Origin: an uncultured Planctomycetales bacterium
GTDB lineage: Bacteria > Omnitrophota > Gorgyraeia > Zapsychrales > GWA2-47-8
Length of the DNA stretch: 64,000 nucleotides
Direction: 5' to 3'
Assembly (NCBI GenBank): GCA_964364715.1
Contig: CAYING010000003.1
Span: 3,764-67,763 of the forward strand
How positions within the stretch are numbered: the stretch's first letter is position 1; every line of letters begins with the position of its first letter. Position numbers and translations under genes: made by a program. The notes beneath the pieces were generated by a model. It had not been told where the DNA came from. It made no database searches and saw only the letters and a program-made list of their open reading frames with translations. Shown here one piece after another: positions 7,215 through 61,684 of the stretch.

Positions 7215-7380
7215 TACCGCTGTATGCTATCAATTCTTCCTCGAGATGTCTATAATTGTTTGAGTGTAAAGCATCTTTGCTGCGAATTAAGAAGCTGATC
7301 AATACTTAATTAATCATCTCCGCCGTAGAGTTCCGCACCCCTAATATCTTTTAGGTCATCAATAATAAGGATTTTCTTCA

Positions 7381-7496
7381 TCCCAATTTTCCTCTATAAA
7401 ATCCCAATTATCATTAGATGAAATTGGGATAAGTACCCCGCCAATGACGCGGGGCAGGCTTGTTACATCTAAAAATATCCAGGGAGAACAAGTACA
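7381..7496 (-). repeat. MITE-like hairpin repeat, copy A (full length, with a GC-rich nested insert)
   Basis: Sequence: CCCAATTTTCC..ATCCCAATT..AATTGGGAT..GTACC[ccccgccaatgacgcggggcaggc]TTGTTAC..AACAAGTAC. Shared with copies at 40998, 44812, 48044 and 48158. Confidence 0.8.
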
Positions 7497-7504
7497 TGGG
7501 CATT

Positions 7505-8492: not shown

Positions 8493-8540
8493 GCACAATA
8501 TAAAAGGCGCCCGCCTTAGGCGGACGCCTTTTATATTGTG
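8493..8540. terminator. Bidirectional intrinsic terminator (long palindrome flanked by A/T runs)
   Basis: gcacaatataaaaggcgcccgccttaggcggacgccttttatattgtg lies just 3' of ccsA on the minus strand. Confidence 0.6.
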
Positions 8541-8559
8541 TCCATAAATCAAAAAAATC

Positions 8560-12517: not shown

Positions 12518-14014
12518 CTAACTCCCGGAATGGCACTCTGAACAGTGCATTTCCTTCCACCCCTCATCTGTTTCATCCGGATGGCGAAACGGAAGACCGT
12601 CCGCGTTCTTCTCAGTGGCCCCGACGGGCCCCTGTTCAATAATGGAATGGCACTGATTGCAATCCTTGGACAAAACCTTCCCGTCCGATGTCTTATGCTT
12701 CTCATCATGGCACCGGAAGCATCCCGGGAAAATAAAATGCCCGATATTATCTGGGTACGCCTTCCACGATGCCTTCATCCGGGGAAAAATATTCATCTTA
12801 TAAATTTCCAAGATCGATGCCACCGCCTGGTCGACCAAGCTCCGGTTCTGAGAAAAAAATTCCGGATATTTTTTCTGATAAAATTTCTCGATTTTTTCTT
12901 TGATCGCGGATTCTGCCGCCTCTTCGGTCTCATACTCTGCGGATAAAACCTTCAACGCCTCCCGCTTGATATACGGGATGGAGTTGTCGATCGCGCCGCG
13001 AGCCAGCACCTCGTTGAGCGTTTTGTCCGGAGAGTTGTAAATGTGCGCAGGACGGTTATGACAGTCCATGCAATCCATCTGACGCAGTTCTCCCTCCGGC
13101 GGTTTCTCCGCAGAATATTTTGAGTCCTCATCAACGTAGATGTCCTCTTTGCCGTCGGCACGGACGACTTTGATCCAGGGAATCGTTTGCCGCTTTGCAT
13201 CTGTGGCGACATAATACACCTTGCTGTTGATATTCATATGCCAATGGATCCCCTCCTTCTTTCCATACGGAGGGTTCCCGCCGCCCACCAGCATCAGCAT
13301 CCTGCTCTTCCAGGCGGTATTTTTCTCATCGGACAAAAAATAAGTTTTATCTGCTTCAATTGCGCCGAAAAACTGCTGCGGCCAATGGCACTTTTCGCAG
13401 GTCTCTTGAGCCGGACGAAGATTTTTGACCGGGGTCTCTATCGGACGGCTATATTTCTTGAAAATGACAGAATAAACCTGATATGTCCCGGCAAGTTTCG
13501 ATCTGACGTACCAATCCACCCCATGCCCGATATGACAATGAACGCACGCCACCCGGGCATGCGGTGAATTCTGATAGGTCGTGAATTCCGGATGCATGAC
13601 TTGATGGCATGTCTTCCCGCAAAACGTCACCGATTCGGTAAATTCATAAGCCCGGTAACTCCCCACCGCCGTGAACAGCAAAAACGCCGTCACAACACAG
13701 ATTGTGACATACGCGATCCTCTGATGCATGGGATTATTGAAATCAATGTGAGGAAAACGCCGGGCATGACCGCGCTTGACCCTTAGCTTGCGCTCGAGCA
13801 TGGCGCCGATGGGGATCAGCAATAAAGAAATGATGAGGAAAATCGGAGCGATTAAATACGTAACCACCCCAAGGTACGGGTTCGCCTCTTTATTGCGGAA
13901 GTCTAGAATGAAAAATACGAGAATGACGGAAAAGCAGAAGCTGGAAAGGATGCCTCCGGCGACGCTGACCCAATTTTGAAAGAGACTCGGTTGTTTATTT
14001 TCGTCGGACTGCAT
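12518..14014 (-). CDS. Membrane-anchored heptaheme cytochrome c, NapC/NrfH-like quinol dehydrogenase type
   Basis: Seven CXXCH motifs (CGKTCH, CVHCH, CEKCH, CMDCH, CFRCH, CNQCH, CSECH). N-terminal TM helices lie immediately before the first heme motif. Confidence 0.8.
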   Translation of the reverse strand: MQSDENKQPSLFQNWVSVAGGILSSFCFSVILVFFILDFRNKEANPYLGVVTYLIAPIFLIISLLLIPIGAMLERKLRVKRGHARRFPHIDFNNPMHQRIAYVTICVVTAFLLFTAVGSYRAYEFTESVTFCGKTCHQVMHPEFTTYQNSPHARVACVHCHIGHGVDWYVRSKLAGTYQVYSVIFKKYSRPIETPVKNLRPAQETCEKCHWPQQFFGAIEADKTYFLSDEKNTAWKSRMLMLVGGGNPPYGKKEGIHWHMNINSKVYYVATDAKRQTIPWIKVVRADGKEDIYVDEDSKYSAEKPPEGELRQMDCMDCHNRPAHIYNSPDKTLNEVLARGAIDNSIPYIKREALKVLSAEYETEEAAESAIKEKIEKFYQKKYPEFFSQNRSLVDQAVASILEIYKMNIFPRMKASWKAYPDNIGHFIFPGCFRCHDEKHKTSDGKVLSKDCNQCHSIIEQGPVGATEKNADGLPFRHPDETDEGWKEMHCSECHSGS

Positions 14015-14092
14015 AAAAAGAGGCCTGCTAAATTCTCGCCGGCCGCGTCAAACTGGCGGGATCGTGAAAAGGGCAGAAATTCCGCTAAAAGT

Positions 14093-15529
14093 TTATTTAT
14101 ACCGTTCCTGAAACTGCTTTTGAGCTTCAAGCCGTTTCGCCGCCTCGGCCGGATCCATTTTGTTGATATACCATTTATGGTCCGCAGATTCCAGGACTTC
14201 CGATAATTTATTTTTTAACATCTGGGCTGCTTCTGATTCTTTCTTGTCCTTGGAGTCGATGTTCTTTTCAACAATCGCCTCAAGCGCCGGGATAAATTCG
14301 GCATAGAACCTTTTGGCGACCTCGTAGGTCCCGTGCCAATGCGTATAATCCGGCCCCATCATAGACGCGCCGTGCCTTGCCCTACGCCCTTCATGATGCC
14401 ACAGCTCATACCAGATAAAATCGATCTCATTACTGAATTCTACCGGCTTCAATAATGGCTGCGCCAATTTCATCAGCTCCTGACCCGGCCTGGCAAATTT
14501 CTCAGTATACAATTCCAACAGGCTGTCATATTGCAGATAAAAGCTGTCCACATAATTGGCGCTGTGGCATTCTGTGCAGACTTTCTTCATGTTCTTCCGG
14601 CGGGTTTCCCAGGACACGTCTTTCCCGGGGAGTCCCATCTTGCCATCGGAAACTTCCGGACGGATAGAAATAGCCGGCCGATTGTTCCAACTGATACGCA
14701 TCCCGACGTCGTGGGTGACATCCATATCCGGGGTCGCGCTCATATGGCAAGTCGCGCACGTCGGAGCAGCATTATAATCTTCGCCGAGAACCCATTTCTC
14801 ATTATCTAAATTCATTTTATGTTTATTCGCATGAAAGGCAATGCCGTGCTTCGATTCTTCGTAGATCTCGATCTGCGGATGGTCCGGCCCCATATGGCAT
14901 TTTCCGCAATTCTCCGGATTTCTGGCCTGTTCAACGGAAAATTTGTGCCGGGAATGGCATGCCGAGCAGGAACCTTCGGACCCATCGGGATTGATCCGGC
15001 CGATCCCGGTATTGGGCCACGTGGCCGGGTCCAGGGAACCGTCCTTCAAAACCTTAACTTCGGAGCCGTGGCATTGCCAGCAGCCGTTAACGGCAGCGGC
15101 GGAGACACCTTCCGGAAAACCAGGCGTTTTCATCATAAGATTGCCCTCGACGATATCCGCGAGGCGATTGTCCAAGGAGCCAAGAATCCTGGCGCCTTTG
15201 GAATGGTGAGACGAATTGAATTCGTTGACCTCTTTAGCATGGCAGCGGGAGCAATCCTGAGGCGAAACAATTATGGAGATGATCTCGCCGTAATGGTCAA
15301 TGGCATCCTTATCGGATTTATCGGCCTGATGGCATTCATAACATCCGACATTGCCCCTAAAATGCTTGCTGGCACCCCACTGCTGAACGATAACGGGCGT
15401 CTCTTCCCGGTGGCATTCAAGACAATCCTTGGACTTGACCGACAACTCGTCAAGACCGTAGGCACTGCGCCATACCAGAACAAAAGTTAATAATAAAAAA
15501 CATGCCCCCGAAAAGAAATATTTTTTCAT
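14093..15529 (-). CDS. Octaheme cytochrome c, hydroxylamine oxidoreductase (HAO)-like
   Basis: Eight CXXCH motifs (CLECH, CYECH, CSRCH, CWQCH, CSACH, CGKCH, CATCH, CTECH). Size ~480 aa. The signal peptide starts at the internal Met MKKYFFSGACFLLL; the track's 50-aa N-terminal extension is rejected. Confidence 0.8.
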   Translation of the reverse strand: MKKYFFSGACFLLLTFVLVWRSAYGLDELSVKSKDCLECHREETPVIVQQWGASKHFRGNVGCYECHQADKSDKDAIDHYGEIISIIVSPQDCSRCHAKEVNEFNSSHHSKGARILGSLDNRLADIVEGNLMMKTPGFPEGVSAAAVNGCWQCHGSEVKVLKDGSLDPATWPNTGIGRINPDGSEGSCSACHSRHKFSVEQARNPENCGKCHMGPDHPQIEIYEESKHGIAFHANKHKMNLDNEKWVLGEDYNAAPTCATCHMSATPDMDVTHDVGMRISWNNRPAISIRPEVSDGKMGLPGKDVSWETRRKNMKKVCTECHSANYVDSFYLQYDSLLELYTEKFARPGQELMKLAQPLLKPVEFSNEIDFIWYELWHHEGRRARHGASMMGPDYTHWHGTYEVAKRFYAEFIPALEAIVEKNIDSKDKKESEAAQMLKNKLSEVLESADHKWYINKMDPAEAAKRLEAQKQFQERYK

Positions 15530-15572
15530 AATCGTTCCGTCCATTGTTTTCCCGTCTAAATTTCTACGATAG

Positions 15573-16130
15573 TTACTCTTTCGGCACCGGGTGCTTGATC
15601 TGTTCGAGTCTTTCCTTGAAATCAAAAGATTTATATGTCGGGGCTTCGGGGTTGTGGCATTTCTTGCAAGTATTTTCATCAGGAATTACCAGGCCCTGCG
15701 CGACCGCTTCTTCCTCATCTTCCATAACGCTTTTCTTCATATAATCCTTGCCGGCGCCGTGACAGGATTCACAGGAAACCCCTTCCTCGACGGTAATCGC
15801 CTCGGTGGCCTTTGCTTCCGTGAAATTATAAGCCGTTGAATGGCATTTCAGGCATTTGCCGCTTGTGGACGGATCATCAATACCTAACTTAGCGGCCTGC
15901 TCTTTGGCCTCCGGGGTCTTTAAGGTCTCAAACGCTTTGGCATGTTTTGACTCCTGCCAGATTTTAAACTGTTCCCCCTGCTCCGGTTTTTTATGGCACA
16001 TGGAACATTTTGTAACTCCCACAAATTCGTGTTCCGCCTGGACGGCGGACATCTCAGCGCCCCACATAAGCATAACTGCACATCCCCCAAAAACTAATAC
16101 GGCATTAATGACTGTTAAGCCTCGTTTCAT
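15573..16130 (-). CDS. Tetraheme cytochrome c
   Basis: Four CXXCH motifs (CSMCH, CLKCH, CESCH, CKKCH). N-terminal signal/anchor. Confidence 0.8.
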   Translation of the reverse strand: MKRGLTVINAVLVFGGCAVMLMWGAEMSAVQAEHEFVGVTKCSMCHKKPEQGEQFKIWQESKHAKAFETLKTPEAKEQAAKLGIDDPSTSGKCLKCHSTAYNFTEAKATEAITVEEGVSCESCHGAGKDYMKKSVMEDEEEAVAQGLVIPDENTCKKCHNPEAPTYKSFDFKERLEQIKHPVPKE

Positions 16131-16161
16131 TTTTTATCCTCCTGTATTCCGGTGAATTAAT

Positions 16162-17313
16162 TTATTTTTCCTGAATCCCTTGATCCGGCTGCGCTGAGTG
16201 CGGAATGCCAAAAATATCAAATTTATATTCTTTGCCGAAAATTTTTTGTTTACTCTCCGAAATAAACCCTAAAACACCAAATACCAATAAAGACAACAAA
16301 ACCAAGACCCCTATGGTCACCGAGATCGGGCGTTTGAACGGATGCCGCTGAGGGCTTCTATCCAAAAAAGGCCACAATAAAAGCAAGACAGGCGCCAGAC
16401 CGACGACAAAAATCCCCAAAAGTTTAGAAAAATATTTCAAAACATGATACATCGGCAAAAAATACCACTCCGGCTTTATCCCCTCGGGAGTGCTTAACGG
16501 ATCGGCCTTTTCGCCCAATTCAAAAGGAGCCAGGATCGATAACGTGATCAAGATACCGAGCAGAATAAAAAAGACGACCCCTTCCTTGAGCATATGGTGC
16601 GGGAAGAACGGGATCCCGTCTTTTACCTTAGTCTCTTTCTCATCCCCCACCGGGTCCATCGTCGCGATCCCCTGAAACCTCACCAAAAATAGATGAATGG
16701 CAATCAAAAAGAAAACCGTCCAGGGAAGGATGATGACGTGGATCACAAAGAAACGGGAAAGAGTTTCTCCGCCGACCGACGTGCCCCCCCGCATCAATGT
16801 CTTCATCCATTCTCCGACAAACGGAATAGCGCCGGCGATCTCTGTCCCGACCGTCGTTGCCCAATACGCCAACTGGTTCCACGGCAGAAGATATCCCGTA
16901 AACCCGAAGACTAACGTCAAAACGAACAGAAAAACACCAATAAGCCAGGTTATTTCCCGCGGTCTTTTGAACGATCCGGTAAAAAATGTGCGCAGCATAT
17001 GCAGAAAGACAACGATCACCATCAAATTCGCCCCCCAGGCATGGACCTGACGGTATAACCACCCCATATACGGTGTGGTCATAATAAATTTAATGCTCTC
17101 AAAGGCTTCATCGACGGTGGGACGGTAATAGATCAAGAGCAATATCCCGGTCAGGACCTGGCTGACAAAAAGGAATAAGGACATGCTTCCGAGGGTATGA
17201 AACCAACCGGTACTTCTGGGAAGCGGTTTTTTGATCTGGTACTGCAGCGACCCTTCGATCTTCTCCAGATCGTAGCGCTTCGACAACCATTCTCTTAAAT
17301 TAAATTTCAGCAT
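16162..17313 (-). CDS. Cytochrome b (fused cytochrome b6 / subunit IV type) of a Rieske/cytochrome b complex
   Basis: Conserved cytochrome b segments: GWFHTLGSMSLFLFVSQVLTGILL, bis-His helix pairs, and PEWYFLPMY of the C-terminal portion. Confidence 0.9.
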   Translation of the reverse strand: MLKFNLREWLSKRYDLEKIEGSLQYQIKKPLPRSTGWFHTLGSMSLFLFVSQVLTGILLLIYYRPTVDEAFESIKFIMTTPYMGWLYRQVHAWGANLMVIVVFLHMLRTFFTGSFKRPREITWLIGVFLFVLTLVFGFTGYLLPWNQLAYWATTVGTEIAGAIPFVGEWMKTLMRGGTSVGGETLSRFFVIHVIILPWTVFFLIAIHLFLVRFQGIATMDPVGDEKETKVKDGIPFFPHHMLKEGVVFFILLGILITLSILAPFELGEKADPLSTPEGIKPEWYFLPMYHVLKYFSKLLGIFVVGLAPVLLLLWPFLDRSPQRHPFKRPISVTIGVLVLLSLLVFGVLGFISESKQKIFGKEYKFDIFGIPHSAQPDQGIQEK

Positions 17314-17345
17314 AAAAATTTTTGTTCCCTTCGCGGAAATTTCGG

Positions 17346-17816
17346 TTACACCTTCACCATGACTCTGCCGTTGACAACGCTCACTTCATGCGGCGGGAGC
17401 GGGCGCGGCGGAGGCCCTGCCACAACTTTTCCATCAAGATCAAAAAGGCCCGCATGGCAAGGGCAGATGATCTCCCGTTTCTTACCGTCCCACTCGACCA
17501 AACACCCTAAATGGGTGCAGATGGCAGAATAGGCCTTAAACCCTTGCGGCGTTCGGATAACCAGAATAGCGCTGCCTGCCACAATTACTTTTTTCCCTCC
17601 CCAGGCCGGAATATCATCCTCGGCGCCGACATCACTTAAACCCCCGGCCGGACCCCGACGGGTCACCGGCCAAAGATAAGCTAAGGCCGGGGCCACCATC
17701 CCGGCCAAGGTCGTGAACAGCCCCAGCCGGATGATCCATCCCAGAAAATCCCTGCGGCTCAAATTTTCCTTTTCCAAAACTGCGGTTTTTACGTGCCCCG
17801 GATTTTCATTTACCAT
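17346..17816 (-). CDS. Rieske [2Fe-2S] iron-sulfur protein
   Basis: Rieske boxes CTHLGC and CPCHAG. Canonical twin-arginine signal SRRDFLG. An internal start (MVNENPGH) abuts the upstream cytochrome gene. Confidence 0.85.
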   Translation of the reverse strand: MVNENPGHVKTAVLEKENLSRRDFLGWIIRLGLFTTLAGMVAPALAYLWPVTRRGPAGGLSDVGAEDDIPAWGGKKVIVAGSAILVIRTPQGFKAYSAICTHLGCLVEWDGKKREIICPCHAGLFDLDGKVVAGPPPRPLPPHEVSVVNGRVMVKV

Positions 17817-17817
17817 A

Positions 17818-19068
17818 TTATTGCCCACTCTTCTTTCGTGCATCCTCTTCAAGCTTTAACCGCTTATATTCCGCGTTCAACGCCAAAACCATGATCAAAA
17901 TGAAAATCCACAGAACAACCAGGCCGACCTTCCGCCACTTAAGCCCTTTGCGTTTACCGTCGATGCTGGCTTTAATTTCCTTGATCTTCACAGCGGATTG
18001 ATTATAAAGATCCGACAACTCATCATAGATCAATTTATGCTGCAGAGGCTGCATTTCCAAAACTTTTGATCTGACCTCCTCCAAAAGCGCTTCTTCCTCT
18101 TCGATAAAAAACCCTTCGATACCGGCCTGCTTAACGATTCCGCGGGTGTCCTTCAGTTCACTATCCGCTTTCTGCAGGATTTTCTTGATCGCCTGGCCTT
18201 GCTGGAACGCTTTGCTCTCCGGCGTATGGCATTTGACGCACGCCTGGTCATAAAGGGCAATGCTGACCGGCTGGACATCATGATTGCTGTGGCAGGAAAC
18301 ACATTCCGAAAATTTATCCCCCTCAGTGATCGAGGCATGGACGCTTTCCAAAAAACGGGCCTTCTCATTGATATGGCATTTACCGCACGTGGCGCCGACC
18401 TCTCTGAATCCAGGCGGAACCGCCCCGTGGCTGCCGTGACAGCTGGCGCAGTTGGCGGCCGAGGTATCGCCTTTTTCGAATAATGCTTTTCCGTGAACGC
18501 TGTTTTTGTATTTTTCGAATACATCCGACGGGAGGCCAAAGGAATGCATCAACTTTTCATTCCCGTGGCACTTGGCGCAGGTCTTAGGAAGATTGCCGGG
18601 ATAGACCGAACTGTTCGGGTCAGAGATCTTCAGGACTTCATGATATCCATGGCAATCACTGCAGACGGCAACTTTGGTATTACCCTCTTCCAAAAGTTTT
18701 TTGCCATGATGACTTGTCTTATATTGGGCGAGTTGATCGGTACGGGTCCCATAAAAATTCATGGTACTGACATCCGAATGACAATTGCCGCAGAGCTCCA
18801 TGGTCTGCTTTTTGTCCGGGATACCGATATAACCCGTTCCCGGGCCCTTGGCTAAGTCCTTGTCATCCTGGGCGGGATCACCGCCGTGGCATTTATTGCA
18901 GTAAATTCCCTGCTGAGAGTGAGCGCTCCCCTTGACCTCATCCCACATATCCGAATGACATGCAACGCAGGAATTCCCTCCAATTTCCTGCGAAAAAGTA
19001 AAATTGGCAAAGCTGAGAAATATAATTATTAGATAAATGATCTTCATAAATTTCCCTAAAAGGATCAA
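17818..19068 (-). CDS. Nonaheme cytochrome c with C-terminal transmembrane anchor (occupies the cytochrome c1 position)
   Basis: Nine CXXCH motifs. Signal peptide. C-terminal TM helix VGLVVLWIFILIMVLAL. Confidence 0.8.
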   Translation of the reverse strand: MILLGKFMKIIYLIIIFLSFANFTFSQEIGGNSCVACHSDMWDEVKGSAHSQQGIYCNKCHGGDPAQDDKDLAKGPGTGYIGIPDKKQTMELCGNCHSDVSTMNFYGTRTDQLAQYKTSHHGKKLLEEGNTKVAVCSDCHGYHEVLKISDPNSSVYPGNLPKTCAKCHGNEKLMHSFGLPSDVFEKYKNSVHGKALFEKGDTSAANCASCHGSHGAVPPGFREVGATCGKCHINEKARFLESVHASITEGDKFSECVSCHSNHDVQPVSIALYDQACVKCHTPESKAFQQGQAIKKILQKADSELKDTRGIVKQAGIEGFFIEEEEALLEEVRSKVLEMQPLQHKLIYDELSDLYNQSAVKIKEIKASIDGKRKGLKWRKVGLVVLWIFILIMVLALNAEYKRLKLEEDARKKSGQ

Positions 19069-19113
19069 AAAAGCAAATTCACAAGGCCTTCCTTAAAATA
19101 AAGACCTTTGGCT

Positions 19114-19896
19114 TCAAGCATAACTATGCAATGTTGAAAAAAACAAATTTACCCCAATGTAGGTAAAAAGAATAACTACAAACCCCAACATTGTTAAAAG
19201 AGCGGCATTAAGACCGCGTAAATTCCGTGTATGGCGCAAATGAAGACAGCCGGCATAGATCAACCACGTTGTTAATGCCCATATTTCTTTGGCATCCCAA
19301 TTCCAGAATCTTCCCCAGCTGATACTGGCCCATATAGAACCGCAGGCCAACCCCACCGTTAAGAAAGGGAACCCCCTGTCAAGCACTTGGAAAATCATCC
19401 CCTCAAGACTATCCAATAAAGCCTTATTATTACCGCGATAGCGCAAAATATTGATGATATAAACAAGGCTCAAACCAAAGGCTATCGCGAAACTGGCATA
19501 AGCAATAAGATAAGATCCCACATGAAAATAGAGCCAGCCGCTTCTCAATGACGGCATCAGCGGACGTATGGCATCATTAATAAAAAGGGAGAATACCAGC
19601 AAACACAACGCCACTACAATCCCCAGCAATTTGATCCAGCGGAACCCCAACCGGAACGCGGCATAAAAGCTCAACATCACAATCAGCCAGGCAAAAACGA
19701 TCAATGTTTCATACGTATCGGTTAATGGAAAACGCTGCGCTTCAATAGCTCGTTTGACAATCAAATAGCCGTGCAATCCCCACCCTGTCATCAAAAAAGA
19801 GCCTTCAATAACAGTAAAAAAATTTTCCCTAACCTTCCCGGCTATGAGGAAAAAAACCAGGGACAAAAAATAGAGGACAATGACTCCTATCATCAT
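19114..19896 (-). CDS. ccsA: Cytochrome c biogenesis protein CcsA (second, canonical-length copy)
   Basis: WWD motif WGRFWNWDAKEIWAL. Eight TM segments. Confidence 0.85.
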   Translation of the reverse strand: MMIGVIVLYFLSLVFFLIAGKVRENFFTVIEGSFLMTGWGLHGYLIVKRAIEAQRFPLTDTYETLIVFAWLIVMLSFYAAFRLGFRWIKLLGIVVALCLLVFSLFINDAIRPLMPSLRSGWLYFHVGSYLIAYASFAIAFGLSLVYIINILRYRGNNKALLDSLEGMIFQVLDRGFPFLTVGLACGSIWASISWGRFWNWDAKEIWALTTWLIYAGCLHLRHTRNLRGLNAALLTMLGFVVILFTYIGVNLFFSTLHSYA

Positions 19897-21236
19897 AACC
19901 CTTCCATCCTCCGCTCTATGTCCTTAACAATTTTTTGTATTTCCTTCTCAAAGGAAAATACATTTTTGCACTTCATGGCTCGAGCGCTAACATACGAGGT
20001 CATGTTTGAAATATCTTCTTTAACAGTGATAACCAAACCGCGATAAAACCGGTAACTGCTTAAAAAAGATCCGGCAACAAGCAAAATCAGCCCAAAATAT
20101 GTTATATACTCGCCGGGATTCTTCGCGTATTTTATGCCGGAGGTATACCGGGACTTAATGCCGTCCAGCATGAACCTCAATTTCTCCGGAGTCTCCGTGG
20201 ATCCTGTATGAGGCATCACTCCGCGGAAAACCCACTGCTCCCGAGCCGGCAAAGAAGAATTGGCCGGTGAATAAATCAAAAGATAACCGGCCGGATTCCT
20301 TAATATATGACTTCGGGTTGAAGGCTGGTTATTCTCATCGATAAAAAAATCCGGGATAAAATTTTTAACCTTTAAAGCGATATTCAACTCGGGAACAGCG
20401 ACCAGATTATCAACACCCATCGTCAAAATCTTAACCGGCTGACTTTCATTTTCACGGAAGATGGCAATGCGTAACTCGTCAATATCAAAACTAAATCTCT
20501 GCTGATAAAGCCTAACACCTTCGATTCTTAAGGGGCCATTGACTTTTAATGTGCGCCATTCTATGGGTTTTCCCGGACGGTTGATTCTTAAGCGGCTGGC
20601 ATAATCATCAGTTTTTTCTTTAGCGGCGCTTGGGATAACCGCGAATTTTTCCAGCGTTAATAAAGCGTCCGTCCCCTCCAACGGGATCGTTTCTCCTTCG
20701 CGAATGGAAAAATCATAAAACCTTCCGCCCCCGGCCGTAATTATGCCGGCTAACAACAATACCGCAACAGCCAGATGAACGATATGTGAACCGAAGATAT
20801 TAAATTTTGCTTTTTCATAAAAAAATCTCTCTTCGCCTTGGCCTGGCTCACAATAAGCCGTCTTACGATAACGCCATTGACTTAAGACCTGGTGAATATG
20901 CTCTGTGACAAGCTGTCTATTTTTTTTCTTAAAAGAAAAATTAAAAACTTCTTTCTCCGCTAACGAAGAGAAGAAATTGCGGAAGGATTCCTTATCTTGT
21001 ACAGAAGAAAATATTCTCTTATGGTATTGATAAAATTTGATGAGTCCCGGCCATCGTCTGACCGAACAATACCCCATCATCAAGACGATATAACACAAAT
21101 AGCCCAAAAACAAACGGTTTTGGAAAACCGCTCTGAAGGAAGGAGAAACGCCCAGCAGACTGATCAGTCCGAGAGAAAGGAGCAGGAAGATCGTTAAGGG
21201 GACAGATAGAAAGATCCTATCAAAAAATTTAAGCAT
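19893..21236 (-). CDS. ccsB: Cytochrome c biogenesis protein CcsB/ResB (second copy)
   Basis: ResB-like topology. 4-nt overlap with the downstream ccsA. Confidence 0.75.
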   Translation of the reverse strand: MLKFFDRIFLSVPLTIFLLLSLGLISLLGVSPSFRAVFQNRLFLGYLCYIVLMMGYCSVRRWPGLIKFYQYHKRIFSSVQDKESFRNFFSSLAEKEVFNFSFKKKNRQLVTEHIHQVLSQWRYRKTAYCEPGQGEERFFYEKAKFNIFGSHIVHLAVAVLLLAGIITAGGGRFYDFSIREGETIPLEGTDALLTLEKFAVIPSAAKEKTDDYASRLRINRPGKPIEWRTLKVNGPLRIEGVRLYQQRFSFDIDELRIAIFRENESQPVKILTMGVDNLVAVPELNIALKVKNFIPDFFIDENNQPSTRSHILRNPAGYLLIYSPANSSLPAREQWVFRGVMPHTGSTETPEKLRFMLDGIKSRYTSGIKYAKNPGEYITYFGLILLVAGSFLSSYRFYRGLVITVKEDISNMTSYVSARAMKCKNVFSFEKEIQKIVKDIERRMEGL

Positions 21237-21272
21237 CGAGTTACTATTAAACCATACTTTGTCCCCGATTAA

Positions 21273-23312
21273 TTAAAATTTTCTGTTATAAACGACTTCC
21301 GCGCCTACCCCATGATAATCATCAAAATCGTTATAACCGCCGTAGCCGACGGTCTTTGCATTAAAATTGTAGTATTCAAGACGGGCCGAAATGCTTGCAT
21401 CATCATTTAAACTATGGTTAGCGCTGAGCCAGAGTTTATCAAGGCTATTTCTGATCGTTCCATCAACTTCGTTATGTTGCAACCCAAAACCGGTTGACGT
21501 CTTATTCGTAAATCGATAACTTCCGCCGAGTAAGCCGACATAACGATTGACTTTATAATCAAAAGCCTTACCCCCCTGATAGAAGGTGGAATTGGTGGAA
21601 ATCCCCTCTCCGGGAGTATACAAACCCTGAAGTTCCCCCATCAGCATGAATGTAAGGGTAAATTTATCCGTTAAAAGACCCATCAAATTTCCTGAAATGG
21701 CATTGCGCATCATTTGCATGCCATTTTGACCTTGTTGACGTGCATACCCCAAGTCATTATCTTCATAAATATACTGCAGGCCGCCGTTCCATTTTTTAGT
21801 AATGCTGGCGTTGTAGCCTAAGGTGACTTGATCAATTGTCTGATCCGAACTCCCCATATAACCGGGATAGGATGCCGGCAAATTGTCCCTTACGTTTTCG
21901 TATTTTCTTCTTTTATCGGCATGTTTATACTTCGCCGTTACCTTTGATTTATCATTTAGCCTGGTTGAAAGTAGAAACGTATTAATAATATCGTTGTTCC
22001 GGATATTGGTTTCGCGGTCGATGGTCCTTTCTGCCCCTGTTACCGCATAGTCGCTAACCATTTCGTAACTGCTGATATCGGCCAGCTCGCTCCAATTCAA
22101 CTTTCTTTGTTCCAACTCCAGGGTATAAGACAGGTTGGTCTTTTTTATGCCGGTATAGGCCACAGAGAAAGTTTCCCCATACTGGTATTCCGACTGGTCG
22201 GACTCGGCTTTCCTCACCACAGTCCCCCCTCTAAACCCGTCTCCTTCAGCTTCCGTTTCCGCGTTCTCAAAACGCGTATTAAACCCGATACGGAGGTCTT
22301 TTATCAAACTATCTAAATTCACCAACCCCAAATTAAGGATATTGGCCTTCCGCTCATTACTTGTATCCGGGTTAATGAATTGATTCAAAGTGGTCCCGGA
22401 CGCGGCGACCCCGCCGGATATCGGCCGTAATTCCGTACGGGTCGTCCTGTTCTTTAAATCCTGAAAAAGATAGTTGGTCGCAAGATACGTCTTTTCAGAT
22501 AGAAAACTGTTATAGCTGGCATGCGTTAATGATTCCTGAAATTGCGGCTCATCGTAGTAGTTTCTTTGTTGGTTTAATGCCCCATTGGAATACCGCGAGG
22601 AAAGGATGGCCTGATCATCATGGTAAAGTTCGATCTGCTGTTTGAGGGCCACATTATGTTTTTCATTGATCTGCTTGGAGAGCTGAACAAAAGCCTTGTC
22701 GCTTACGCCATCGACATCCGCCGCGATCACACTGGAGCGCAGCGTGTTCAATCCGGTGAAAGCAACCTCCTCACCGCGCAACAATGTTTCCTGTCCATTA
22801 CGTGACCAGCGGGTATATCCGATGGTCACATCAGGAAGACTATCCAGTTTAATCCCGTATTCCACATCCGTATCAAACCGGTCCGTATAGGTATGATTAT
22901 CTTTCTTTTCAGCCGTTTCCCTTCCAAGCCCATAACTTGCCGGATCCCATGGTTCGTTGGAACCGTCATAATAGCGGCGGGTCAGCCGGGTATTCAGTTT
23001 AAGAAAATAAGAATCTTCTTTTGCTAAATCCAAATTCAATCCATAATCACCATCATAAAGAGCATGAGCTTCAATAGACAAAATGGCATCTTTAATATTG
23101 CCGCTCAGCATTAATTCCTCAAGCCCGCCGGAATAGTTATCGGTGACATAATTATCTTCCCTAAAGCGGCCCTCATCGCCGTCAATGACCATAAAACGGG
23201 AACCGATCTTGAAGGAATCCAAGGTCAAAGATGATTTTGCGTGGGCGACATCCCAAGACAAAAATACCGCCATACAAAGGAACAAATAGTGTAATATTAT
23301 TTTTCTATACAT
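21273..23312 (-). CDS. Outer-membrane beta-barrel protein (679 aa), candidate porin partner of the adjacent periplasmic multiheme cytochrome (MtrB/PioB-like role)
   Basis: Signal peptide. Alternating amphipathic beta-strand pattern throughout. C-terminal aromatic residue (…VVYNRKF). Lies immediately downstream of a periplasmic heptaheme cytochrome. Confidence 0.55.
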   Translation of the reverse strand: MYRKIILHYLFLCMAVFLSWDVAHAKSSLTLDSFKIGSRFMVIDGDEGRFREDNYVTDNYSGGLEELMLSGNIKDAILSIEAHALYDGDYGLNLDLAKEDSYFLKLNTRLTRRYYDGSNEPWDPASYGLGRETAEKKDNHTYTDRFDTDVEYGIKLDSLPDVTIGYTRWSRNGQETLLRGEEVAFTGLNTLRSSVIAADVDGVSDKAFVQLSKQINEKHNVALKQQIELYHDDQAILSSRYSNGALNQQRNYYDEPQFQESLTHASYNSFLSEKTYLATNYLFQDLKNRTTRTELRPISGGVAASGTTLNQFINPDTSNERKANILNLGLVNLDSLIKDLRIGFNTRFENAETEAEGDGFRGGTVVRKAESDQSEYQYGETFSVAYTGIKKTNLSYTLELEQRKLNWSELADISSYEMVSDYAVTGAERTIDRETNIRNNDIINTFLLSTRLNDKSKVTAKYKHADKRRKYENVRDNLPASYPGYMGSSDQTIDQVTLGYNASITKKWNGGLQYIYEDNDLGYARQQGQNGMQMMRNAISGNLMGLLTDKFTLTFMLMGELQGLYTPGEGISTNSTFYQGGKAFDYKVNRYVGLLGGSYRFTNKTSTGFGLQHNEVDGTIRNSLDKLWLSANHSLNDDASISARLEYYNFNAKTVGYGGYNDFDDYHGVGAEVVYNRKF

Positions 23313-23327
23313 GTTGCCCCCCTTCGT

Positions 23328-24149
23328 CTATCGATTAAGCGTTTTCCAAATATTTGAGCCATGCACGGCCCGGTGGTGGTCAATACATTCCTGACCCTTC
23401 CCAATATAATAATCTCCGCCTGATCCTGCTTTCGTACCATGCTGAATAGCGCCGATAGTGCCGGTTGACGTATTAAAAGAAGGTTCCCAGTGGCAACGCA
23501 GACACAAATTCGCCTGATCCGCGACCAGCATCTTATCGTAAACAGCGCCATGCGGGTTATGGCACGTCTGACATCCTTCACGCATAACGTCGTGTTCAAA
23601 CACAAACGGCCCCTTCATTTCCTTATGACATTTAAAGCACGATTGATCGGATTTCTGAAGAGAGACCGTATTCATCGTTTCAAGTTCCGTCCCATGAGGG
23701 TTGTGGCAGTCTGTACACTTCATGCGTCCCTCCACCACCGGATGATGGTACTGTAAAAGAAATTCTCCTTTTTTATCCATATGGCAACTGAAGCAATTCT
23801 CCGGATCATAGCGGACAATATCTTTTTTGCTTTGACTCTCCGCGTGTTTACTTCCCGCTCCGTGACAACTTTCACAACCTCCGCCCAAAACATCCTCCTT
23901 CTCCCCGAGAACTCGATAGTGAGAAGTTAAAGAAAACCGTTGAGCTTGTTCCTCATGACACGTGGCACAGGTCTCGGTGCCGACATACGTTGCCCCCTTG
24001 ATCGCCGGAGGCATAATCCCCTCACCCGAGAAAGAATTCTTCAAAAATACCGGGGCAAATAAAAACAAAGCGGTCAACAGACAAAGAGAAACTATTGCCA
24101 TCCGCTTGTGATGAGACCGCCCCGTTCCTGATTGAATCGTTTTGTCCAT
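23328..24149 (-). CDS. Periplasmic heptaheme cytochrome c (MtrA/DmsE-like electron shuttle candidate)
   Basis: Seven CXXCH motifs in 273 aa. N-terminal signal peptide. Confidence 0.8.
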   Translation of the reverse strand: MDKTIQSGTGRSHHKRMAIVSLCLLTALFLFAPVFLKNSFSGEGIMPPAIKGATYVGTETCATCHEEQAQRFSLTSHYRVLGEKEDVLGGGCESCHGAGSKHAESQSKKDIVRYDPENCFSCHMDKKGEFLLQYHHPVVEGRMKCTDCHNPHGTELETMNTVSLQKSDQSCFKCHKEMKGPFVFEHDVMREGCQTCHNPHGAVYDKMLVADQANLCLRCHWEPSFNTSTGTIGAIQHGTKAGSGGDYYIGKGQECIDHHRAVHGSNIWKTLNR

Positions 24150-24184
24150 ATTGACCCCCTTGTTCGCTTCCTATAAAAAGTTGC

Positions 24185-25222
24185 TTAGACTCCGACTTCC
24201 TCCATCGTGCTGATCTTTGCCAATTTCCCGTAAAATGCCGCGATCTTCTCTTGAATCATCGCTTCCACCTGCTTCACACATAACGAACGCTGCTGAACAC
24301 TCCCCTCAACGACCTTATCCAAATCATCGATCTCCTTTAAAATAACATTGGGGACATCCGCGACAGCCGGATCGATATTCCGCGGAATGGAAATATCGAT
24401 GCACAACAACTTTTTTTCACGGCAGGACATGATCTGCGCGATCAAATCCTTTTCAATCAGATAATGCGCACAGCTGGCCGAACAAATACACACATCCGCC
24501 TGTTCCAAGATTTCTTTGATCTGCCAGAACCCGGCGGCAACCCCGCCGTATTGCCGGGCTAGATCTTCGGCTTTTTCCTGGCTTCGGTTCATGACAAAAA
24601 TCTTTCCGATGCCCTTTTGCTGAAACTGACTGGCCGCCAATTTTCCCATCTTCCCGGCGCCCAGGATCAAAACGGATTTATCATTTAATTGACCCAAAAT
24701 ATTTTCCGCCATTTTTATGGCCGCCCAGCTGATCGAAGAACCGCCGGCATCGATCTCTGTTTCAGCCCTGGCCTTCTTCCCGATCCGGATGGCAAGGTTG
24801 GTCAGGATATTGAACTGTTTGCCCAGCATCCCTGCCGTGCGGCTCAATTCCGTCGCGACCTTCACCTGTCCCAAGATCTGTTTTTCGCCCAGGATAAGAG
24901 AATCCAGCCCGGTGGAAACAGAAAAAAGATGCCGAATGGCATCTTTCTCTTTTTTTACATAAAAATATTTCATAAGGTCATCGGAAAAATGGAGGTCCTT
25001 AATCTTAAAAAGCGACTTAACCAGAAGCGCCGGATCATCATCCAGAAGATGCGCGTAGATCTCAGTGCGGTTGCAGGTCGACAAGATCAGCGCTTCCACG
25101 ACCGAAGACTCGTTCTTTAAATGGGAAAGCAATAATTCTCTCTCAACGGTCCTCAAAAAGAATTTTTCTCTTATTTCAACCGGGCACTTTTTATGGCTGA
25201 CGCCGACAACGCACAGATGCAT
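24185..25222 (-). CDS. hemA: Glutamyl-tRNA reductase HemA
   Basis: Catalytic motif LSTCNRTEIY. NADPH-binding LILGAGKMGKLAA. Internal Met start (MHLCVVGVSHK) preferred over the track start at 25243. Confidence 0.85.
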   Translation of the reverse strand: MHLCVVGVSHKKCPVEIREKFFLRTVERELLLSHLKNESSVVEALILSTCNRTEIYAHLLDDDPALLVKSLFKIKDLHFSDDLMKYFYVKKEKDAIRHLFSVSTGLDSLILGEKQILGQVKVATELSRTAGMLGKQFNILTNLAIRIGKKARAETEIDAGGSSISWAAIKMAENILGQLNDKSVLILGAGKMGKLAASQFQQKGIGKIFVMNRSQEKAEDLARQYGGVAAGFWQIKEILEQADVCICSASCAHYLIEKDLIAQIMSCREKKLLCIDISIPRNIDPAVADVPNVILKEIDDLDKVVEGSVQQRSLCVKQVEAMIQEKIAAFYGKLAKISTMEEVGV

Positions 25223-25249
25223 TCTTCCCTCTCCTAGGTTCAATTAGGT

Positions 25250-25840: not shown

Positions 25841-26506
25841 CTATTTCAAAAGCTGTTTTTCCAGCGCCTCTTTATCGCATATAAGGATGCGCGGGGGCTT
25901 CAGGTCTACCAATGCCTTATCTTTAAGTTTTTTAAGATGCCGGGTGACTGTTTCACGAACCAAACCCAACCTTTGAGCGATCTCTTCGTGGGTAAATGAA
26001 ATACCGGGAACTGACTCGCTCATATTGAGCAGGAATTTGATCAAGCGTTTTTCCGGGGCATCCAAGGACACCTCTTCCACCAAAGAACTCATCCGGCATA
26101 AACGCTGGGCAAAAATGCGGGTTAAGGCTTGAGCCAGTGTGGAATTGCTTTTGACCATTTGCACATATTGGCTGCGGCTCACGATCCCCAGCTCGCAATC
26201 CGACATCGCCTGGGCCGATGAAGAACAGCTCCACTGCGTCGCGCCGGGGTTGCAGGCGCAGGTATCGCCGGACCCGAGGATCTCCAGGATCTGTTCCCGG
26301 CCATTGAGAGAAGTCCGGAATATTTTGACCCGCCCGGATAAGACAAAAAATATCTCCCGGCAGGATTCTCCGGCGGTCGAAATGACCTTATTTTTTTCAA
26401 AAATTTTTCGGATAATAGTGGGGGCGATCGCCTGCTTTTCCTTGAGCGACAAGTCGCGGAACAGTGATATGTTTTGGATCATATCTGGAGTAATGCGTGA
26501 CGACAT
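25841..26506 (-). CDS. Crp/Fnr-family transcriptional regulator with an internal Cys cluster, paralog 1
   Basis: cNMP-binding beta-roll plus C-terminal HTH (EIAQRLGLVRETVTRHLKKL). Conserved motif GDTCACNPG..WSCSSSAQA..DC. Start chosen by alignment with the paralog at 60718..61419. Confidence 0.85.
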   Translation of the reverse strand: MSSRITPDMIQNISLFRDLSLKEKQAIAPTIIRKIFEKNKVISTAGESCREIFFVLSGRVKIFRTSLNGREQILEILGSGDTCACNPGATQWSCSSSAQAMSDCELGIVSRSQYVQMVKSNSTLAQALTRIFAQRLCRMSSLVEEVSLDAPEKRLIKFLLNMSESVPGISFTHEEIAQRLGLVRETVTRHLKKLKDKALVDLKPPRILICDKEALEKQLLK

Positions 26507-26640
26507 TATTATGCAGTCCTCATTTAATATATATCTTACTGTATTCCTTTTTAATGGCAAATGAATTGAGAACTAATTTAAATCCTCTTCTGCTGCACTG
26601 GAACTTGAATACGCCAAACCACAGGAATATTATTAATCTA

Positions 26641-27639: not shown

Positions 27640-27669
27640 ACTTCCTCCCTGCCCCGCCTGTGGCGGGGC

Positions 27670-39645: not shown

Positions 39646-40668
39646 TCACCCGAATCTTTCCGTATGCTCAATGATCTGGCGCATCATGCGGACACACTTG
39701 ACGGGAAAAGACCCCACCGCGGTCTCACCCGAAAGCATCGCATAATCGGTCCCGTCCAGAATAGCGTTCGCCACATCGCTCACCTCGGCGCGGGTCGGGC
39801 GGGAATTTTCCGTCATACTTTCCAGCATCTGGGTCGCGGTCACGACCACCTTATCGCTGATATTGCAATGAAGAATGATCTCCTTTTGGATCAAAGGGAT
39901 CTGATAGATCGGCAAGGAAACGCCCAAGTCTCCCCTCGCCACCATGACACCGTCACAGGCGTCGATAATACTCATCATATTTTTGACACCGTCCTGATTT
40001 TCGATCTTGGCAATGATCTGACAGCGGGGTAAATGCGGTTTGACCAGGCGGCTCACCTTAAGAATATCCTGTTTATTCCGGACAAATGACTGCGAAATAA
40101 AATCAACTTTATGGCGGATACCGAAAGCAATATCCCGCTTGTCCTTATCCGTAAGAATATCCGAGCTGAGTTTAAGCGCCGGGATATTTACCCCTTTACG
40201 GGACTTAATCATCCCTCCCTGCCGGACTTCCAAACGGACACCATTTTTCGACCGGCCCATGACCTTTAAATGGACCTTGCCGTCGTCGATGAAAATATCC
40301 ATTCCCTTTTTCAGATGATTGACGGCAATATCGGAATCGAGCGGGATCTCAAAAACATTGCTCGCTCCGCTCGCCTCGCTCGCCTTGCTCTTCATCCACA
40401 CCGGCTGGTATTTCATAAGTTCGACCGGGTATTTGAGTTCCCCTAAACGCAGGCGGTACCCTTCCAGGTCCTGCAGAATTTTGATCTTGAGTTTTGCCTC
40501 GCGGTTGGCGGCTCGGATGGTCTTGATCAGTTTGAGATGGTCCGCGCGGCTTCCGTGGGAAAAATTGATGCGGGCGACATCCATCCCCTCGCGGGCCATC
40601 TTGATAATAGTATCCTTGCGCTGACTCGCCGGACCCAAAGTGCAGATGATCTTTGTCTTACGCAGCAT
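39646..40668 (-). CDS. Pyruvate kinase-like protein lacking the C-terminal regulatory domain
   Basis: N-terminal KTKIICTLGPAS, MDVARINFSHG and MVARGDLG motifs. Only 340 aa. Confidence 0.8.
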   Translation of the reverse strand: MLRKTKIICTLGPASQRKDTIIKMAREGMDVARINFSHGSRADHLKLIKTIRAANREAKLKIKILQDLEGYRLRLGELKYPVELMKYQPVWMKSKASEASGASNVFEIPLDSDIAVNHLKKGMDIFIDDGKVHLKVMGRSKNGVRLEVRQGGMIKSRKGVNIPALKLSSDILTDKDKRDIAFGIRHKVDFISQSFVRNKQDILKVSRLVKPHLPRCQIIAKIENQDGVKNMMSIIDACDGVMVARGDLGVSLPIYQIPLIQKEIILHCNISDKVVVTATQMLESMTENSRPTRAEVSDVANAILDGTDYAMLSGETAVGSFPVKCVRMMRQIIEHTERFG

Positions 40669-40999
40669 TGAGATTGAGCAAACCCTTCAGGCGGTTGGAG
40701 GAACCGGGATCCATTTGCGTGAAATAGATCGCGATCCCCTCGCCGGCAGCGATCCGCGAGATACGCGCCAACCCCTGCACCGATTCCTCAGGATTTGTGG
40801 AAGCGCATTGGATCGCGAAACTGATCTCGTCGTTGTTCTGCAGATAAATATTGGTCTTGATCTTAACGAACGCGCTTTTGAGGGAAAGGTCTTTCAGCTG
40901 GCCTTGGAGGGTGATCTGCGTGCCCAGGCTGATCTGGATAGGGAAACTCAACGCGGCGCGCTGAGTTTCCCGTTGATTGCGGAATGAATCCGGATACAT
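40658..40999 (-). CDS. PilZ-domain protein (c-di-GMP receptor candidate)
   Basis: RxxxR (RETQRA) and D-x-S-x-x-G-like (DLSLKSAFV) motifs. Its ATG abuts the end of repeat copy B. Confidence 0.65.
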   Translation of the reverse strand: MYPDSFRNQRETQRAALSFPIQISLGTQITLQGQLKDLSLKSAFVKIKTNIYLQNNDEISFAIQCASTNPEESVQGLARISRIAAGEGIAIYFTQMDPGSSNRLKGLLNLNAA

Positions 41000-41090: not shown

Positions 41091-41093
41091 CTT

Positions 41094-44764: not shown

Positions 44765-44811
44765 ATTAATGACTTTGAAAAGCATTGTACACGGCACCAA
44801 AACCTTAAGCA

Positions 44812-48270: not shown

Positions 48271-48279
48271 TAAAAAAAC

Positions 48280-61672: not shown

Positions 61673-61684
61673 ACGGCACCTCCT

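Follow-up and report, generated by a model that had tools for sequence, protein, structure and literature searches.

We examined a family of short structured repeats in a 64,000-nt stretch of DNA (hereafter the window) from an uncultured Planctomycetales bacterium assigned by GTDB to the Omnitrophota (assembly GCA_964364715.1, contig CAYING010000003.1, positions 3,764 to 67,763 of the forward strand). Most genes of the window are read from the minus strand (46 of 54 long open reading frames, ORFs), and the repeat, an AT-rich element of about 95-120 bp, lies on that strand in every copy, in the orientation of the genes. In the window there are four full copies (A, B, E and F), besides a divergent full copy (D) and one fragment that consists of hairpin 1 only (Table 1); a regular-expression scan of the window for further hairpin-1-only modules found none beyond those already known. 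All five copies that a first-pass annotation had listed exist, at or within 1-3 nt of the ends given there. A 17-mer (GAAATTGGGATAAGTAC) and a 14-mer (CTTGTTACATCTAA) each occur four times in the window, a count reached in none of 100 shuffles, and a covariance model scored the window copies at 56-90 bits (E 2e-8 to 2e-15). Each copy fills a gap between two co-directional genes. Copy A starts 7 nt past the stop of a GIY-YIG gene, copy B 1 nt past the stop of the SSB gene, and copy F 8 nt past the stop of an LpxL-like gene (48280); E follows F head to tail in such a way that the 3' ATG of F doubles as the 5' ATG of E, a single ATG being shared, as it also is in a tandem found in another genome (L025). 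The hairpin-1-only fragment is placed past the stop of ORF 49458-49709. An integron attC array was ruled out, as the copies are scattered among housekeeping genes, and so was a link to the GIY-YIG gene adjoining copy A, since the GIY-YIG gene of a relative (L053) has no element beside it.

Table 1. Copies of the element in the window and their parts. Coordinates of whole copies count both ATGs; scores are from the covariance model; SD, Shine-Dalgarno sequence.
Feature	Position	Strand	Remarks
Copy A	7379-7497	-	64.4 bits, E 3e-10
Copy A, relic 5' ATG	7497-7495	-	
Copy A, hairpin 1 arms	7495-7487 / 7464-7459	-	3' arm plus GTAC
Copy A, nested GC hairpin	7458-7436	-	
Copy A, conserved 5' arm/anti-SD	7431-7416	-	TATCCCAATTTCATCT
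Copy A, proximal arm	7409-7401	-	AATTGGGAT
Copy A, SD and distal arm	7388-7380	-	SD GAGGAAAA; distal AATTGGGAT
Copy A, 3' ATG	7381-7379	-	
Copy B	40997-41092	-	90.1 bits; no nested hairpin
Copy B, relic 5' triplet	41092-41090	-	AGG
Copy B, hairpin 1 arms	41090-41082 / 41059-41051	-	
Copy B, 5' arm	41049-41034	-	
Copy B, proximal arm	41027-41019	-	
Copy B, SD and distal arm	41010-40998	-	
Copy B, 3' ATG	40999-40997	-	start of PilZ gene (40658-40999)
Copy F	48157-48271	-	86.5 bits; upstream member of head-to-tail tandem
Copy F, relic 5' ATG	48271-48269	-	
Copy F, nested GC hairpin	48233-48214	-	
Copy F, 5' arm	48209-48194	-	
Copy F, 3' ATG	48159-48157	-	
Copy E	48043-48159	-	downstream member of tandem
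Copy E, nested GC hairpin	48119-48100	-	
Copy E, 5' arm	48095-48080	-	
Copy E, 3' ATG	48045-48043	-	true start of TauE/TSUP gene (47275-48045)
Copy D	44812-44913	-	divergent subfamily; 55.7 bits, E 2e-8
Copy D, hairpin 1 arms	44913-44902 / 44883-44875	-	CCTGATTATTCC/GGAAATCAG
Copy D, 5' arm	44870-44855	-	AATCCCAATTACTTCT
Copy D, end	44826-44811	-	GGGGAAAATTGGGAT followed by TG; GGGATTG where other copies have ...GGGATG
Hairpin-1-only fragment	49411-49445	-	D/L024 subfamily (TGATTTTCC...GGAAATCA); 26.3 bits, E 0.018; no module 2 after it

Read on the minus strand, the element runs (ATG)TACTTGTTYTCCC...TTAGATGTAACAAG, an optional GC hairpin, and then GTACTTATCCCAATTTCATCTA...AATTGGGAT...(T)A(T)ARAGGAAAATTGGG-ATG. 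The three parts described by the first-pass annotation are present, namely hairpin 1 (GTACTTGTT/AACAAGTAC), hairpin 2 (ATCCCAATT/AATTGGGAT) and a terminal stretch, (T)A(T)AGAGG/AAAGGAAAATTGGG, that runs into the ATG. They are arranged in two modules, which are found isolated or duplicated in several places. Module 1 comprises one or more AU-rich hairpins bounded by GTAC, with an optional nested GC hairpin; module 2, nearly invariant across copies, consists of TATCCCAATTTCATCT, a variable spacer and AAGGAAAATTGGG-ATG. The nested hairpin of copies A, E and F divides the 3' arm of hairpin 1 in two (AACAAG-[CCTGCC...]-GTAC); it reads CCTGCCCCGCG...GCGGGG in A and, with compensatory changes, CCTGCCTGCC...GGCAGG in E and F. 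Hairpin 1 itself differs in sequence between subfamilies and keeps its pairing. The arm pairs seen include TTG/CAA, TTA/TAA, CTG/CAG, CTGATT/AATCAG, CTGATG/CATCAG, CCTTGCTT/AAGCAAGG and GTGTT/AACAC; five pairs carry compensatory double changes, the observed covariation score was reached in none of 500 shuffles, and 92.5% of the hairpin-1 cells are paired, as against 35-55% with slid partners. In hairpin 2, the proximal 3' arm is degenerate in E and F (ATTTGGGAT, AAATGGGAT), whereas all copies have a perfect distal AAATTGGGAT at the start codon.

Every non-degenerate copy ends in AAGGAAAATTGGG followed by ATG, the SD of the element (AAGGA) being spaced 8 nt from that ATG. Judged by the encoded proteins, this 3' ATG is the genuine start codon of the downstream gene, because the Pfam domains found there begin within the first 12 residues (residues 1-12). 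The genes so equipped encode CbiX, HypD, HisG, a YkuD L,D-transpeptidase, an ABC ATPase, WecG, a GlmU-like enzyme, ribosomal protein L29, CinA, TauE, a PilZ protein and a response regulator. In the window, the PilZ domain behind copy B starts at residue 8, and the TauE/TSUP protein behind copy E has more than 100 homologues of 256-257 amino acids at 100% coverage. The downstream genes show no functional coherence and therefore form no metabolite-type riboswitch regulon. The 3' ATG of copy A opens a 23-codon ORF (7310-7381, minus strand; MKKILIIDDLKDIRG... / MKKILIIDDLKDIRGAELYGGDD and stop) that had been described as a mini-ORF ahead of a HAD gene. Going by its sequence, this ORF looks like the truncated N-terminus of a response-regulator receiver domain, what is left of a deleted gene whose element leader survived; the HAD domain begins only about 165 nt beyond it, and a divergent copy of the element in stretch L039 (4437-4526) precedes an intact response regulator.

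The element is present in at least eight Omnitrophota metagenome-assembled genomes (MAGs) or metagenome bins, with about 31 distinct copies after removal of duplicates. One-genome-per-species contigs were searched with the pattern ATCCCAATT-N20-50-GGAAAATTGGGAT, in which the 5' arm and the terminal 13-mer are combined and the last G, that of the ATG, is left off. This returned 22 stretches, 15 of which carry the element; they belong to five MAGs of Omnitrophota lineage, two of them labelled Planctomycetales (GWA2_47_8, eight stretches; RIFCSPHIGHO2_02_FULL_48_11, two; ERP119705_co15_632, three; CSMAG_1994 and ERP125453_co1_189). All 15 continue with G and an ORF. Six of the other seven were chance matches in other phyla, and the last, L023 of a marine Omnitrophota MAG, is a palindromic sequence of another kind. 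A second pattern, which ends at AAAATTGGG and does not include the ATG at all, was run on metagenome stretches, and ATG followed in 18 of 18. Thus, the proposal that a dispersed repeat serves as a 5' leader, with an SD-like end fused to the ATG of unrelated genes, holds in all 33 element hits from other genomes and metagenomes of Omnitrophota, and neither of the two doubts that the first-pass annotation had attached to it, that copies elsewhere might not lie consistently at gene 5' ends and that the ATG fusion might be coincidental, was borne out. Look-ups of contigs with exactly matching proteins assign the window to groundwater metagenomes from Hainich; as regards population polymorphism, they yielded nothing but the same arrangement or contigs that break off within the repeat, and the HAD protein had no record. 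The modularity of the family is also seen in the 'Planctomycetales' MAG ERP119705_co15_632, where a partial and a full element precede rpmC, the gene for ribosomal protein L29, and a tandem pair of hairpin-1 modules that lacks module 2 is found 430 nt further along (L025, 3736-3850 and 4279-4375).

At its other end the element begins with a second ATG, which the first-pass annotation had not mentioned. This ATG is found in 25 of 29 copies (AGG in copy B), and its G sits inside hairpin 1 and forms a G-C pair there in 21 of 24 copies. None of the 25 relic triplets is GTG or TTG, which argues that the sequence ATG is recognised and not merely 'a start codon'. In about ten copies the relic ATG overlaps the upstream stop codon or lies at most 14 nt past it (TGATG in L006, TAATG in L008 and, by eye, TGATG in L012; TAGATG, abutting, in L029). 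In seven copies a perfect TATAAT is situated 6-9 nt upstream of the 5' end, six of the seven as TGnTATAAT. Sequences around these boxes are otherwise unrelated between copies, so the upstream promoters are not part of the repeat. Such positions are typical of a start codon without a leader of its own, and the relic ATG apparently stands where the ancestral start would be. In two GWA2_47_8 stretches (L016 1831-1872, L026 4487-4529), an extra hairpin, CCCCAACTTC...GAAGTTGGGACG, whose end resembles the element terminus AAATTGGGATG, lies upstream of the copy; it is probably a decayed upstream tandem copy, which would account for the ACG, in place of ATG, at the front of these two copies.

Two Logan assemblies of relatives, with proteins 82-89% identical to those of the window, are empty at both loci compared, LpxL-TauE and SSB-PilZ, with exact boundaries and the host frame intact. 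At LpxL-TauE the relatives (L047, L048) read ...AATCTTTAATG / ...GAAGAAAATCTTTAATG followed by GAAATC, the stop of the first gene overlapping the start of the second, and the window reads ...TAGgtttttttATG / ...AAAACGTAGgtttttttATG[F]ATG[E]ATG followed by GAAGTT; the TauE gene of GWA2_47_8 is also without an element. At SSB-PilZ the empty sites are ...GAGTAAAATG / ...GACGAGTAAAATG followed by TATCCGG in L052 and ...AATAAATATG / ...GACGAATAAATATG followed by TACCCCG in L051, and the filled site is ...GAGTAAAAGG / ...GACGAGTAAAAGG followed by TACTTG...(93 nt)...GGGATG and TATCCGG. The junction is thus ATG-gene in the relatives and ATG[element]ATG-gene in the window. The triplet that is AGG at the 5' end of copy B is ATG in the empty-site relatives, and we read AGG as a relic ATG that has since mutated. 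Taken together, the two exact empty sites and the tandem copies support mobility, or at least insertion and deletion as a discrete unit, in line with the first-pass annotation, which had called the element mobile or recombinationally spread. In one of the empty-site genomes, two hairpin-1 modules begin right at the TauE stop (L047 1902-1962; TAG followed by TAC...), and the contig ends inside them.

These results are, in our judgement, probably best explained by a modular, non-autonomous insertion element of the Omnitrophota that integrates at ATG and persists at start codons by rebuilding the translation start. Integration would take place at the trinucleotide ATG and yield ATG[element]ATG. 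The upstream ATG would then be the relic of the host gene's start, still lying at a stop overlap, a few nucleotides after a stop, or 6-9 nt after the -10 box of a formerly leaderless gene, and the downstream ATG would be fused in frame to host codon 2, preceded at 8 nt by the element's own SD. Sense insertions at start codons would be tolerated because the element rebuilds a complete translation-initiation region, whereas insertions at other ATGs or in the opposite orientation would presumably be purged; under such purging the survivors would be expected to be leaders, as virtually all copies are. Transcribed within the host mRNA, the element is expected to fold into hairpin 1 and a bistable 3' part. 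In an ON-like fold the 5' arm would pair with the proximal AATTGGGAT and leave SD and AUG free; in the alternative fold it would pair with the distal AAATTGGGAU(G) and GGA, and SD and AUG would be occluded. Formerly overlapping cistrons would be split in this way, and formerly leaderless genes would gain a structured leader. The enzyme that moves the element would presumably act in trans. Since hairpin 1 keeps structure and not sequence, the orientation is fixed and the termini are not inverted, a hairpin-recognising mechanism (HUH or tyrosine-recombinase-like) offers itself, which we regard as a lead and not as a result.

Several observations weigh against this explanation. A 3-nt target means very low specificity, and the bias towards start codons would rest on the putative selection argument given above. 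None of the 48 window proteins scanned belongs to a transposase, integrase or recombinase Pfam family, Y1 HUH transposases included. The two empty-site genomes are sisters (their TauE genes are 86.5% identical in nucleotides to each other, against 78% to the window), so each locus needs a single event whether that was an insertion or a precise deletion; for the polarity we propose, we rely on the outgroup, on the tandem, on the decay of the relic in copy B and on the fact that copies in different genomes occupy non-orthologous positions. The strong conservation of module 2 beyond SD and ATG, together with the covariation of hairpin 1, could equally mean a functional RNA. Finally, copy D adjoins no start codon, the ATG of the YaeQ-family gene (44764) lying 47 nt downstream, as the first-pass annotation had said; the same annotation had taken D for a degenerate copy of some 60 nt without hairpin 1, but it measures about 100 nt and has a hairpin 1, of the other subfamily.

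The element might also be actively targeted to ATG starts, either by a structure-guided enzyme (HUH or tyrosine-recombinase-like, acting on folded single-stranded DNA) or by a process linked to translation initiation. Acting thereafter as a portable bistable translation-initiation region, it would turn leaderless or stop-start-coupled genes into SD-dependent, independently controllable ones. We consider this unlikely; if true, the family would be a natural 'RBS-swapping' mobile element (RBS, ribosome-binding site) that rewires the translation of operons across a phylum.

A different account of how the insertions are tolerated, which we hold to be doubtful, borrows from the interspersed repetitive units of mycobacteria (MIRUs). 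Ribosomes ending the upstream gene, or initiating without a leader, would enter an ORF at the relic ATG; its translation would melt the helix and deliver ribosomes to the real start, thereby keeping the coupling after insertion. There is precedent for this, as MIRUs are described as mobile units that insert at start codons and are made harmless by an internal ORF coupled at -4 spacing (PMC12548453, citing Supply 1997). The location of the relic ATG at upstream stops or likely transcription starts fits such a scheme. So does the relic frame, whose median open length is 20.5 codons (5.5 and 8 in the two others) and which extends across the 5' arm in 16 of 26 copies; this frame difference is, however, largely the consensus of the family, so that the copies are not independent evidence. 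The -4 arrangement, in which the TGA of the upstream ORF (uORF) overlaps the real start (ATGA), occurs in only 4 of 26 copies (L006, L009, L012 and L030). In 10 of 26 the uORF stops after 2-11 codons, and it is absent in B, L016 and L026. A conserved leader peptide was ruled out, since the uORF differs between copies in frame, in length and in the place of its stop, and its frame is displaced by nested hairpins. A canonical SD at proper spacing moreover makes coupling unnecessary. We regard delivery of ribosomes by the uORF as possible but unsupported, and any regulatory effect of the uORF as putative.

The conservation of the 3' part raises the further question of whether the family is in the first place a cis-regulatory RNA leader, that is, a translational switch, a thermometer or a site for a global RNA-binding protein or small RNA, with a regulon that was inherited or recruited and not transposed. 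Control would be exerted through UAUCCCAAUUUCAUCU, paired with the proximal AAUUGGGAU in the ON state or with the distal AAAUUGGGAUG and the GGA of the SD in the OFF state. Apart from the covariation of hairpin 1, whose sense strand shows a mild excess of G.U over A.C (17-20 versus 9-12), this is favoured by the folds. TATCCCAATTTCATCT can pair either with the proximal AATTGGGAT, often degenerate, or with the distal AAATTGGGAT(G) plus the GGA of the SD; the pairing that sequesters SD and AUG is both the RNAalifold consensus and the minimum-free-energy fold for B, E and F, and three inverted repeats (I1, I2 and I3) are mutually exclusive. In copy D the last pair of the long helix shows one compensatory change, from U.G to A-U. 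Module 2 is also conserved above the level of third codon positions. In an orthologous pair from two species (L010 and L019), in which the element occupies the same gene junction, module 2 is identical at 50 of 53 positions (94%) and hairpin 1 is entirely different, as against 61% identity at third codon positions in the gene downstream; module 2 is here either under purifying selection or homogenised between copies, or the pair represents two independent recent insertions at the same start codon.

Other results tell against an RNA leader as the sole explanation, and we judge it improbable. Besides the lack of functional coherence downstream, exact presence or absence between close relatives and the tandem copies are hard to reconcile with an inherited regulon. 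A search of the element against Rfam 15 gave no match at the gathering threshold, and a limit relaxed to E<=10 added nothing but noise. The SD-sequestering helix is uninformative for covariation, as neither of its sides ever varies. The long helix shows no covariation beyond shuffles; a kissing or strand-exchange pairing of UUAGAUGUAA in hairpin 1 with UUUCAUCUAA was discarded for the same reason, being 84% complementary without covariation beyond shuffles. Exceptional sequestration of the SD was likewise ruled out: the predicted cost of opening the region from SD to AUG in copies B, A and E (5.9-7.0 kcal/mol) is mid-range among about 49 genes of the window. An RNA leader is thus compatible with the mobile element as an added function and not as a replacement for mobility, and a regulatory role of the predicted bistable 3' part, by way of its alternative pairings, would be compatible with the data.

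The first-pass annotation had called the repeat 'MITE-like'. A classical MITE (miniature inverted-repeat transposable element) would be the deletion derivative of an insertion sequence with a DDE transposase, moved by cut and paste, and its 3-bp target-site duplication would merely happen to be ATG. Size (about 100 bp), AT content, strong structure, multiple copies and subfamilies, and the same triplet on both sides all have that look. ATG flanks 25 of 29 copies on either side, and likewise the element at the two verified insertions; a target-site duplication would give this picture, and so would an element that inserts behind an ATG and brings a terminal ATG with it. In the strict sense the name does not apply. 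There are no terminal inverted repeats; the inverted repeats are all internal (the arms of hairpin 1, and the 5' arm with the proximal or distal AATTGGGAT), and no match exists between the 5' terminus (GTACTTGTT) and the 3' end when the latter is reverse-complemented (CCCAATTTTCC). The single orientation is strict, modules occur alone or duplicated, and the G of the 5' ATG, being paired in hairpin 1, behaves as element sequence and not as part of a random target-site duplication. Viral contigs and plasmids that were searched contained no copies, and an insertion-sequence transposase is among the families missing from the 48 window proteins. We therefore regard a classical MITE as very improbable. 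Least credible of all is a cassette whose main effect is transcriptional, through an outward promoter of its own as in REP2: the TGATAAT and TTTATA strings that had suggested a promoter in hairpin 2 of some window copies, and the description of Neisseria REP2 and Borrelia IR repeats as carrying promoter, RBS and ATG (PMC3184786), are outweighed by the position of these -10-like strings in the least conserved stretch of the element, by the lack of any sigma-70-like site on the sense strand of copies B, E and F, by the external, non-homologous TATAAT boxes of seven copies, and by the location of the window copies inside strings of co-directional genes.

Among known systems, compared by description in the case of MIRU, REP2 and IR, the mycobacterial MIRUs and the Neisseria REP2 come closest to the mobile element proposed here. 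MIRUs are, as described in PMC3184786 and PMC12548453, 40-100 bp interspersed repeats between co-directional genes of operons, in gene orientation, sometimes in tandem, with filled and empty orthologous sites and no associated transposase known; flanking direct repeats are noted with the empty and filled sites (PMC3184786). The placement is the same in the Omnitrophota, between co-directional genes, in gene orientation and with filled and empty sites at the start codon. MIRUs are, in those accounts, GC-rich, actinobacterial and flanked by tetranucleotide direct repeats, and expression is kept by the coupled internal ORF, whereas the element described here is AT-rich, flanked by ATG, from another phylum, and has its own SD and ATG and conserved hairpins. 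REP2 and the IR-A and IR-B repeats (Parkhill 2000; Morelle 2003; Dunn 1994, as summarised in PMC3184786) share its anatomy in several respects: they are 120-150 bp long, lack terminal inverted repeats, have two internal stem-loops near the 5' end, contain an RBS and ATG fused to the downstream ORF, and occur in tens of copies before unrelated genes by a mechanism of proliferation that is not known. The Omnitrophota element likewise has RBS and ATG fused to ORFs, two stem-loops and no terminal inverted repeats, but no internal promoter; it would be transcribed from external promoters or upstream cistrons, whereas a promoter belongs to the repeats as described there. The genes behind REP2 are co-regulated on host-cell contact according to the same text, whereas no co-regulation is known for the element, and a relic start codon or an exact empty site is not mentioned for REP2 in that text.

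Two further groups are reminiscent of single traits. Like the pneumococcal BOX elements and the bacterial interspersed mosaic elements (BIMEs) of E. coli, the element is a mosaic of separable, duplicable modules (hairpin 1, in variable number; the optional GC hairpin; module 2), is strongly folded and would be co-transcribed with its flanking genes; it differs from BOX and BIME, which neither join onto start codons nor supply an SD and ATG, and no sequence similarity was seen by inspection. The palindrome-associated elements of the IS200/IS605 family (PATEs) and the repetitive extragenic palindromes (REPs) with their associated tyrosine transposases (RAYTs), all of HUH Y1 type, also lack terminal inverted repeats, have hairpins conserved in structure and variable in sequence, keep a fixed orientation, integrate beside a short specific sequence and carry a conserved tetranucleotide at the hairpin foot, which is GTAG in the REPs of E. 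coli and GTAC in the element. In contrast to them, the two hairpins of the element are unlike each other, the target would be only 3 nt, and the window holds no Y1 transposase or RAYT gene; we take the resemblance as a mechanistic lead only. Our literature search found no paper describing such a repeat in Omnitrophota.

Small bacterial repeats with a habit of settling on start codons have very few known examples (MIRU, REP2 and the Borrelia IR). The Omnitrophota element is an independent example, from an uncultured phylum, in which the junctions are unusually clear: a relic ATG on the 5' side, a rebuilt SD and ATG on the 3' side, exact empty sites, and targets that are stop-start-overlapping or leaderless. 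It would offer selfish DNA a simple way of doing almost no damage even as it uncouples neighbouring cistrons and alters the initiation of genes, and how a mobile element finds start codons, or survives at them, becomes a testable question. There is a practical side as well, since the elements break assemblies (two contigs end inside copies) and mislead gene callers through spurious TTG starts and mini-ORFs.

The TTG after copy D was considered as a duplicated TTG start codon and ruled out: YaeQ homologues are 166-168 amino acids long, which places the start of the gene at ATG 44764. Directly after copy D (44765-44816, minus strand) lies what is by eye a good sigma-70-like promoter, TTGCTT-N17-TACAAT, 19 nt before this ATG, and its -35 hexamer overlaps the end of the element (GGGATTGCTT). 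The window also contains a second repeat of the 'hairpin + SD' kind, GCCCCGCC-NNNN-GGCGGGGCAGGGARGA, at 27643-27673 and 50088-50118 (read on the minus strand), with an ATG 4-6 nt further on and the loop inverted between the two (ACAG versus CTGT); the nested GC hairpin of copy A resembles it in the opposite orientation. Hairpins of the form CCCGCC...GGCGGG stand just upstream of gene starts at 32821, 41556 and 45656, and the window has six matches where 0.9 are expected by chance.

The only Rfam match in the window is a molybdenum-cofactor (Moco) riboswitch at 53289-53441 on the minus strand, which scores 52.6 bits against a gathering score of 36 and lies upstream of a gene for a MoaA-like radical-SAM protein (52351-53343) that is followed by TatC and MOSC genes; beside it, 53448-53657 and 61478-61687 form a 210-nt direct repeat of 79% identity. 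Repeats of 60-95 nt link 25934-26338 with 60808-61239 and lie within paralogous genes of Crp/Fnr-family regulators (25841-26560 and 60718-61419). A large cluster at 12518-25243, with multihaem cytochrome c, cytochrome b/Rieske, two ResB/CcsA pairs for cytochrome c maturation and HemA, suggests an extensive respiratory or extracellular electron-transfer apparatus. A 49-nt palindrome with a perfect stem (8493-8541; GCACAATATAAAAGGCG...CGCCTTTTATATTGTGT) between the MsrA and cytochrome c assembly genes is probably a bidirectional terminator.

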